Assembly: GCF_018977255.1 (NCBI RefSeq)
Contig: NW_024704743.1
Span: forward strand, 744,001 to 808,000
From: Callorhinchus milii
Lineage: Eukaryota
Reading direction: 5' to 3'
DNA length: 64,000 bases
The position numbers and the translations under genes are program-made. The notes beneath the pieces were generated by a model. It saw only the letters and a list, made by a program, of their open reading frames with translations, ran no database searches and was not told the origin of the DNA. Positions 26,701 through 29,700 of this stretch are shown here, piece after piece. Each line of letters begins with the position of its first letter. Positions within the stretch are counted from its first letter, which is position 1.

Positions 26701-29700
26701 GGAGAGCCAGAGCGTGCGTTAGGGGGTAGCTGTTGGGAGATAACCAGCTAAAACCGCCGCTGAAAGAACTGGTTTATTTCACTGATTCAGGGCTTATTTC
26801 CTGCCGTTTAATCAGATCTTTATTCTGGTCTGTTTCTTGATCCTGTCGTCAAGGAAACACCATGCTAGTTAATCATCAGCGGTCGCGAATACTTTGTGTT
26901 CAGACAGCCTTGTTGTCTGGCACACTTGGAAACCCATCACTGCGCTTCGAGACTCTCCAAACTACTGAGGATCCCAATCACAGAACCATAGAATTATACA
27001 GAAACACAGAGAGAGAGAGAGAGAGAGAGGCCATTCGGCCCATCGTGTCTGTGCCAGTGCTTTGAAAAGAACATTCCAATTCAATCCCGCTCCCCCCCCC
27101 CCCCCCACCCCCTCTGCCCCCGCGCTCTAAAGGGTAGCGTCTACTGATGAAACGTCTCAAACGTCTCTTCTCAGGTAATTGCTGTCGGGTGCAGTGACTG
27201 GTTGCTCTGTCAGCCGTCACCCCAGCCAATTTACGTCTCGCCAACGTCCCCACGCACAGCCAAATTGTGACACTCTCGCCTCGAGACGCCAGTGCAGTGT
27301 TGGGGGGAGGGCCTTGCAACGTCAGAGGTGCCGTCCCTTTGCCCGAGACGTTAAACCCCCAACCACATGATACTGCGGGACCTCAGTTTAACATCTCATC
27401 CGAAGGACGGCACATCTGATCCCCCGCCACCCCACCACCCCCACTCACACACACACACACACACACACAAACATCCCCTCCTCCCCTCCCCACACAGCAC
27501 TGGAGTGGTGGGCGTAGATTAACAGAACTGAACATTGGATTAGCGTCACTTGTCCAACTTAAATTATAACATTGACCCTTTGTCCCCTCAGTTTTTCTTG
27601 TTTTGTTTGAAAAGCCAAACCTATGAGTCTAAAGTATTACTGTAGAGCTGTCTGTCTGTGTCTGTCTGTGTCTGTCTGTCTGTCTGTCTGTCATTACAAA
27701 TAAATCTGTTCTGAAATTAAGGACACCTGTAATTACCTCCGTAACCATTGCGCTCACACAGGATTCCCAGCATAACACACGCAATGCATAACACACGCAT
27801 GCTTACACCTAAGTTGGTACATGGATTGCATGCCACACAGAACAGGCACGCATTTCCGCAACTCACATCATGCACGTGCTTTTACACGTGACTTTGCACA
27901 ACCCGCATTCCAGATGCGCACACTTGCACAGGGTTTACCCAACTCGCTTAATGCCCCATTACCACATCGGCCGATTTGCAGGAAGAGTAACCACACAATG
28001 AGATTGTACATAGCCTGGCCAGTCCCCTCACACCTCCAGATCACCAGGAAAGAACCTCTCTCTCTCTCTCTCTCTCTATATATATTATTCTAACATTTTA
28101 AAAGGGATTGGAACAGTCAACCGGGAACCGTTCCTCCCAAGCACCGAAAGTAGAACAAGACGACAAGATTGCAAAGGGGCGATTTCAGGATAGACGTCTT
28201 TACCCAGAGCGTAATTAATGATTGGAACAGGGCTAACAGAAATGTTGGTCGAGGCCGGCACATTTTGGGGTTAAATAATAATGGTCCTTGCCCGTTTCCA
28301 CAAATTCAGTCACATATCTGCAACAAGTGAAAGCCACGCAAACACACGCACGCGCGCACGCACACACACACACACACACACAACGCACACGCAGGGAAAG
28401 ACACACAGAGACAACGATAAGAGTGGCATCAATAACAGTATTGACATTGGGGCCAAGCGTCAGCAATGGCAAAGGGAAGGGAGAGGGGAAAGGGAGAGGT
28501 CAGACTCACTTAATAGGCTATCGCGTCACAAGGCACTTACCTGGGATAACTGATATAGTTTTCAGAGCTCGTAACACCCTGAAAGTTCGAAGTGCTGAAA
28601 CATTGCCTAGGTTTACAAACTCTGTTACATACCTGCAGAATCAAACCACAGTTATTTAGGAGCAGGAGAGCGACACGTTAGTTTTATGTACCTTTAGCGC
28701 GAACCGTACAGAACCAACGCCAGTCAGAACGCGCCCCGCTCCGCCACACATACAGGGAGTGAAGCAAGTGTCTGGCCTCGACCGGTCGGCTTCCTGCGTG
28801 CCCACAGCAAGTGACATCGGTACAGCCTACGCCTCAGCTGGAGCATGGCGTCCAATGCTGGGCACCGACACTTTAGGAAGGGTGACAAGGCCGTGTGTAG
28901 GGCGTGGAGGAGATTTATCAGAATGGTACCAGGGATGAGGGACTTCAGTTACGTGGAGAGACTGGAGAAACTGGGATGGTTCTCCTCAGAGCGGAGAAGG
29001 TTAAGGAGAGATTCAATAGAGGTGTTCAAAATTCTGAGGGGTTTCGATAAAGAGCAAATAAGGAGATACTGTTTCCACAGATTCAAGGTAATTGGCAAAA
29101 GAACCGGAGGGGAGATACCGAGAAATGTTTTTAAGCAGCGAGTTATTACGATCTGGTGGAAGCAGAATCAATAACAACTTTGAAAAAGGGAATTGGATAT
29201 TTATTTCAAAACCAAAAAAAGACAATGTGCAACGGGCTGTGGGGAAAGGTCGGGGGAGCGGAACTGATTGGGTGGCACTTCCAAACAGCTGGCACAGGCA
29301 CGATGGGCCAAATGGCCTCCTTCTGTGCTGCAATCTTCTATGATCCCATGAGCTTCCTGCGCTGCCCGCGTGCACTGTGTGGAAGTGGCATCGGCAGGAG
29401 GTCTCTGAGCGTAACGCACAGGAAGTGATGTCGGTGGCGACCTAGCGATCCAGAAGTGCGGCCATTTTCATAGCGCGTCCAATTATAACGCAGGGATCTG
29501 CGTTCTAACACAGTTGGTCTGCAGCGAGTGAAGGACTGGTGGGAGACAGCAAGTGTTTGAGTAACGGGCAGTATTCGACGGTGTGAAATGATTGCAATGA
29601 GGATTTTTTTTAGAAAAAGGTGATAAATTACAAATTTCTTACTATTCTCTCTTGGCCCAATACTGTGTCTCACACTTATCTCTCAGGAACACTCTCATGT

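Follow-up and report, generated by a model that had tools for sequence, protein, structure and literature searches.

Sodium channel genes of vertebrates can carry the exon for the S3-S4 segment of domain I as a tandem, mutually exclusive pair, in which the neonatal (N) copy is always upstream of the adult (A) copy (PMC5811987) and in which residue 7 of the exon is diagnostic, being Asp in the adult copy and Asn or Ser in the neonatal one (PMC8383430). Mammalian Nav1.5 owes its activation threshold to the neonatal-to-adult switch, and a push towards the neonatal form in adult mouse hearts leads to conduction delay and arrhythmia (cited in PMC8939363). In a sodium channel gene of the elephant shark, Callorhinchus milii, the upstream copy is intact and the copy in the adult position is broken. 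The question is whether this channel has lost its developmental switch, or whether the broken copy serves as an unproductive (poison) exon; both had been proposed in an earlier sequence-only reading. We analysed a stretch of 64,000 nt (assembly GCF_018977255.1, contig NW_024704743.1, positions 744,001 to 808,000), here called the window. The exons, the acceptor, the TAG, the frame shift, the TTCCAA and the TGG/GTAAAG after 28204 described in that reading all agree with the sequence (Table 1).

Table 1. Features of the domain I S3-S4 region, in window coordinates (a slash marks the splice junction)
Feature	Position	Strand	Basis
Upstream constitutive exon (coding exon 4, domain I S2-S3), donor GGC/gtaagt	31401..31529	-	tblastn of P0122 and P0018; sequence
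Intact domain I S3-S4 exon, 92 nt, neonatal type (5a / 5N / SCN5A 6a), Asn at position 7	28541..28632	-	sequence, comparison with L001
Intervening intron, 223 nt	28318..28540	-	sequence
Predicted distant branch point CTGAC	28499..28503	-	motif match only; A 41 nt after 5a donor
Polypyrimidine tract, 33/35 pyrimidine	28465..28499	-	sequence
AG-free zone, 185 nt, 3' half a TG-rich repeat	28320..28504	-	sequence
Decayed adult-type exon (5b / 5A / SCN5A 6b), 90 nt, intact acceptor ttgcag/A at 28317	28228..28317	-	sequence, comparison with L001
Candidate weak GC donor CGG/GCAAGG, would give 26-nt in-frame micro-exon without S4	28286..28294	-	sequence; 6/9 consensus
Destroyed donor, CTG/TTCCAA where GT needed	28222..28227	-	sequence
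Candidate weak GT donor TGG/GTAAAG, exon would be 114 nt with premature stop	28198..28206	-	5/9 consensus positions
Three GCATG (Rbfox-type) motifs in TG-rich patch	27798..27874	-	weak: denser cluster elsewhere in window
Downstream constitutive exon (coding exon 6)	24988..25224	-	protein-to-window exon mapping

Identity of the gene

Proteins of C. milii share 100% identity with the downstream exon of the window, and their exons map along it. The gene corresponds to C. milii XP_042188457.1 (a RefSeq member), which RefSeq labels 'type 4 alpha B-like'. Outside the species, the best matches are eight elasmobranch clusters (78-82% identity), six of which are named 'type V-like alpha b', and the next matches are mostly SCN5 of amphibians, fish and birds. 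In a tree of 36 rows built on the first 1000 residues (SH-aLRT support without bootstrap, several outgroup rows being fragments), the C. milii gene and seven elasmobranch rows join bony-vertebrate SCN5 with an SH-aLRT of 100, apart from SCN4, SCN8 and SCN1/2/3/9. A full-length tree, which held no SCN4 or SCN8 rows, could not settle the group of the gene. Because of the elasmobranch best matches and this grouping, we assign the gene to the SCN5A / scn5la / scn12a group; by homology it is the orthologue of SCN5A (Nav1.5), and on the same comparison the RefSeq label misleads. Both this identity and the breadth across the clade described below go beyond the sequence-only reading. A 'cardiac' label for the channel would derive from orthology alone.

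Several further features of the gene were recorded. Residue 372 of the model P0122, which belongs to the pore loop of domain I and is encoded near window 16573-16073, is Phe; this residue is Phe or Tyr in 7/7 elasmobranchs checked and Cys in two mammalian SCN5A rows. Phe or Tyr at this position presumably makes the channel tetrodotoxin-sensitive. Beyond the low end of the window, the S3-S4 exon of domain III occurs twice in tandem, each copy being open, in the RefSeq model P0122 (about residues 1225-1310); the two are annotated as alternatives in sharks, rays, lungfish and a caecilian. The SCN5 lineage has an intact coding domain III pair at the place where SCN8A has the stop-carrying exon 18N. 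Upstream of coding exon 3, six GCATG motifs fall within 300 nt (window 35121-34833, minus strand), which may be a degenerate TG repeat.

The intact exon and its decayed neighbour

The intact exon is flanked by the acceptor cag/G and the donor CAG/gtaagt, and the Asn-bearing form is used by all ten C. milii protein models. For comparison we used L001 (1212-780, minus strand), which is a metagenome contig of vertebrate host DNA, holds an intact 5a/5b pair and belongs to a different paralogue from the C. milii gene. It was the one vertebrate contig found with a pattern built from the acceptor of the broken copy, the match being the 3' copy of the intact pair. The C. milii exon agrees with L001 at 82/92 positions of the 5' copy and at 72/92 of the 3' copy, and by position and DNA it is of the neonatal (5a) type. 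L001 also contains a TGCATG motif and elements that resemble ISRE1 and ISRE2, and residue 8 of its 3' copy is Met.

A functional coding exon at the downstream site would have an open frame, 92 nt and a GT donor; the remnant has an in-frame TAG at 28235-28233, 90 nt after two 1-nt deletions, and TTCCAA in the donor position. Its first six codons differ from those of the intact exon by synonymous changes only, and the tail ISVSP is legible in a shifted frame. The claim that the two segments are homologous was borne out, since, when both strands of the window are compared with the intact exon, the remnant is the top match apart from the exon itself (score 53 against 44 for the runner-up; 51/92 identical), and none of 5000 shuffles reaches that score. 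The homology extends over the whole exon, because the portion after base 31 is significant alone (13/5000 shuffles). In comparisons with intact copies, the remnant scores 68 (56/92 identical) against the 3' copy of L001, while the two 5' copies give 56 and 53. Among 14 diagnostic sites, eight are 5b-like, two 5a-like and four neither, a bias short of significance (p 0.11), four of the eight having been preset by the L001 search pattern. Codon 7 of the remnant is GAA (Glu), which is one change from Asp and two from Asn. From its position 3' of the neonatal copy, its full-length homology and its closer resemblance to the L001 3' copy, the remnant is by descent the adult (5b) copy, in agreement with the earlier assignment of the broken copy to the adult position. 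With a stop, two deletions and no donor in this copy, and Asn in 10/10 models, the view that the channel codes for the neonatal-type exon only was upheld as well.

That the break is an error of the assembly is hardly credible. The case is built on assembled sequence rather than raw reads, but some 35 substitutions together with two 1-nt deletions, spread over 90 nt beside a perfect exon, are not the pattern of sequencing errors, and the Asp form is absent from the UniRef and RefSeq models of the gene (10/10). Sampled words of 27700-28700 were recovered at 0.65-0.80 in four runs of one 2025 study and at 0.06-0.08 in two probable RNA runs, values which are neutral on splicing and assembly.

The decay is uneven. 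When the remnant is compared with a 5b-type protein, 15/49 non-degenerate sites have changed, i.e., 1/19 constrained sites in codons 1-10, 12/20 in codons 11-24 and 2/10 in codons 25-30. The difference between the 5' end (1/19) and the rest (14/30) has a Fisher p of 0.003 for a block picked after inspection, and the longest unchanged run anywhere has a p of 0.035.

Known regulatory elements of such pairs left no significant trace behind the remnant, either for an ISRE1 relic (wider range, 55/300 shuffles as good) or for an ISRE2 relic (262/300). The segment GGGTAAAGAC, which by eye looks like the ISRE1 of L001, was rejected as a relic of that element because 533/1000 shuffles score equally. 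A comparison of the intervening intron with L001 showed no homology, its score being reached by 109/500 shuffles. An RNA structure in the remnant was likewise rejected, as no stable fold was found and 175/200 shuffles fold equally well (z +1.06).

Splicing signals around the remnant

The signals on the acceptor side have the layout of a distant branch point. A second CTGAC motif is present at 28460. The AG exclusion zone of the remnant's acceptor, 187 nt, is among the five longest of the 1538 YAG sites on the strand. Under shuffling, the whole zone is AG-free in 1.9% of cases and its non-repeat 98 nt in 16%; after simulated neutral change of 0.3-0.4 per site, the corresponding values are 0.7-5% and 11-23% of runs. 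The acceptor side of the remnant accordingly carries a modest signal of constraint, and the donor side little. The replacement donor proposed at 28204 does contain GTAAAG, but it is weak, since it matches the U1 consensus at 5/9 positions where ten real donors scored 6-9. In simulated splice forms that include the remnant, four of five acquire a premature stop; in the fifth, a 26-nt exon ending at 28292, the frame is kept and S4 is deleted.

These features bear on the possibility that the remnant is a working poison exon, i.e., that an on/off switch has replaced the neonatal-to-adult switch. The branch point near the 5a donor would enforce exclusivity, and use of the remnant's acceptor, together with a weak donor or with read-through into the intron, would lead to a premature stop and mRNA decay. 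The intact acceptor and a branch-point motif inside the steric limit of about 50 nt from the upstream donor (PMC7969005, which also notes UG-rich tracts in SCN5A) are in line with such a device, as are the pyrimidine tract, the long AG exclusion zone, a hallmark of distant branch points (PMC1431707), the far better preservation of the first ten codons relative to the middle, the stops in most simulated forms and the GCATG motifs downstream. However, the homologous donor is destroyed and the best GT donors within 300 nt match at 5-6/9 positions; the 3' half of the AG-free zone is a TG repeat that is without A anyway, and its unique part stays AG-free in 16% of shuffles; and the segment was spotted through its conserved start, which inflates the 5' signal. 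Moreover, ISREs were undetected, the form has no annotated isoform, and among 403 stored proteins no model includes more than seven residues of the remnant's reading, although targets of decay are seldom annotated. On balance we regard a working poison exon as possible but doubtful.

It has also to be considered that the remnant is shortened to an in-frame micro-exon by way of the GC donor after 28292. The resulting channel, with 22 residues missing from the voltage sensor of domain I, would probably be non-conducting. Such an exon would stay in frame into exon 6 and be free of stops, conservation ends just past the GC site, and both changes in the 9-mer relative to the L001 3' copy (at -3 and +5) are towards the donor consensus. 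GC donors usually require a near-perfect consensus, whereas this site has G at -2 and at +6. The micro-exon is used by none of the ten C. milii models and was spotted after the fact, and we consider it very unlikely.

Distribution among vertebrates

The eight elasmobranch clusters list 35 proteins, four of which are without the region, leaving 31 scorable models from 14 species. Residue 7 is His in 14, Asn in 10, Arg in 3, Lys in 3 and Gln in 1, and it is never Asp or Glu. Among 106 bony-vertebrate matches, a count that leaves out two lizard SCN2/3 rows, the residue is Asp in 99, Glu in 2, Asn in 4 and Lys in 1 (101/106 acidic). The two lizard rows (P0143 and P0144, SCN2/SCN3 models) read in frame through the 5a-5b intron and include both exon copies, and are probably annotation artefacts. 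The S3-S4 loop (exon positions 2-7) is varied in sharks and rays (YITSFVHL, YVTAVVKL, YVTEFVRL, YVTEFVQL) and near-invariant in bony-vertebrate adult forms. The skate Amblyraja has Lys at position 7, like the mammalian neonatal form.

Annotation that is too shallow to list a second copy is argued against by two kinds of control. Lungfish list both domain I copies (N 2, D 2), as does the caecilian Rhinatrema (D 7, N 5), and elasmobranchs themselves list the domain III pair; 7/7 pairs of elasmobranch isoforms of equal length differ at the S3-S4 exons of domain III, and none of them differs in domain I. The elasmobranch evidence consists of automatic protein annotation, in which the single exon is identified as the 5' copy from its residue, and an unannotated intact adult exon in this group is possible. 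Because no elasmobranch model has the adult Asp while the controls list both copies, the domain I neonatal/adult switch, which lungfish, caecilians and mammals have, is likely to be missing across cartilaginous fishes.

A loss private to chimaeras, with an intact adult exon of sharks and rays that is rarely used or was missed by annotation, is a rival reading. The elasmobranch side comes from protein models, an unannotated copy of the exon has been found in another C. milii channel gene (PMC12772994, Table S1), and a loss more recent than 420 Myr would more readily explain why the remnant can still be recognised. Against this, an acidic residue is found in 0/31 models, whereas adult RNA should consist mainly of the adult form, and the same annotations captured the domain III pair in seven species, as those of lungfish and caecilian did both domain I copies. 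We therefore judge a chimaera-only loss to be improbable. Shorter proteins were also scanned for truncated isoforms and for other chimaeras; among the best 120 of 2110 matches listed, nothing concerned the remnant, and the single chondrichthyan entry was an Asp-bearing paralogue from Rhinoraja.

Proposed history and predicted functional consequences

The reading that we favour, with a probability of roughly 55%, is that the remnant is a decayed adult copy that is probably dead and unspliced, that the channel is probably always of the neonatal type, and that this state is probably common to cartilaginous fishes. In the proposed sequence of events, loss of the donor would have stopped exon definition between introns of about 3 kb, after which the adult exon would have drifted and exon 5a become constitutive. 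The branch point, the pyrimidine tract and the UG-rich tract would be leftovers of the old either-or mechanism, which may in part still serve to regulate the intact exon. A single loss before the split of holocephalans and elasmobranchs, dated to about 420 Myr ago (PMC3964593), would be the simplest history, and parallel losses are possible. One ancient loss is compatible with a remnant that is still legible because C. milii has the lowest neutral rate among the vertebrates compared (PMC3964593). The supplement of that study yielded no neutral branch length for C. milii, and the loss is accordingly undated.

In mouse Nav1.5, removal of the charge at position 211 (D211A) shifts activation in the same way as D211K (PMC8939363). 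Since D211A behaves like D211K, the channels of C. milii and of elasmobranchs are predicted to activate at more positive voltages than an Asp-bearing form. A more far-reaching scenario can be drawn, in which the adult exon was lost more than 420 million years ago, adult hearts run on a neonatal form whose key residue has been tuned by substitution (Q, H, R, N, K), and chimaeras have recycled the dead exon and its distant branch point as a regulated off-switch; taken as a whole, it is speculative and unlikely.

What was found at this locus is a loss of reverse polarity in a known splice switch, which is real, apparently undescribed and likely to be clade-wide. For the elephant shark, the duplication has been reported in the SCN1A homologue only (PMC12772994), a study whose Table S3 includes three C. 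milii genes by Ensembl id and whose available text makes no mention of the remnant. That picture is corrected here, in that the SCN5 gene once had the duplication too and then lost it. In the open-licence literature, nothing was found on this locus or on a neonatal-only SCN5 in cartilaginous fishes. A vertebrate class in which the channel of adults probably never carries the adult Asp would be a natural test of the purpose of the switch. Loss of one copy is an already known kind of event, and the surprise is therefore a moderate one, short of a demonstration that the remnant is spliced.

Comparison with known systems

The layout of the acceptor side resembles the either-or exons 4a/4b of OGDH and those of alpha-tropomyosin, which share with it a branch-point motif less than 50 nt from the upstream donor, an adjacent pyrimidine tract, a long AG-free zone and a UG-rich segment, the last of which is also noted for SCN5A (PMC7969005). 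The C. milii locus differs in that its downstream exon is without a donor and its branch point is predicted.

The analogy drawn earlier to exon 18N of SCN8A is a loose one. Like the remnant, 18N arose by duplication of an S3-S4 exon, carries an in-frame stop and has an intact twin (PMC3809569). In contrast, 18N is the neonatal copy of a domain III pair and its splicing has been demonstrated (PMC3809569), whereas the remnant is the adult copy of a domain I pair and is without its donor.

The closest counterparts are the 5a/5b (5N/5A; SCN5A 6a/6b) pairs of SCN1A, 2A, 3A, 5A, 8A and 9A, with which the C. milii pair agrees in position, order, 92-nt size, short intron and a neutral versus an acidic residue at position 7 (PMC8383430, PMC12772994). 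It departs from them in that the 5' copy alone can code and that ISRE1 and ISRE2 are undetectable.

Losses of one copy have been described repeatedly. Exon N of SCN1A was lost in 7/23 mammals, one member of the pair decaying by frameshifts and stops (PMC5811987), and many one-copy losses are known that include SCN4A and frog SCN5A (PMC12772994). The frog SCN5 models seen here mostly retain the acidic residue. One zebrafish SCN1A homologue is without the duplication (PMC12772994). In models named scn1laa, the residue is non-acidic in 35/40, so that teleost scn1laa is a likely precedent for a neonatal-type-only state. The C. milii exon has decayed as in the published cases (SCN1A, SCN4A, frog SCN5A), through frameshifts and stops (PMC5811987, PMC12772994). 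The polarity differs: published losses are mostly of the neonatal copy, and those in SCN1A and SCN4A remove it and keep the Asp (PMC5811987), whereas SCN5 of C. milii has done the reverse and lost the adult copy.
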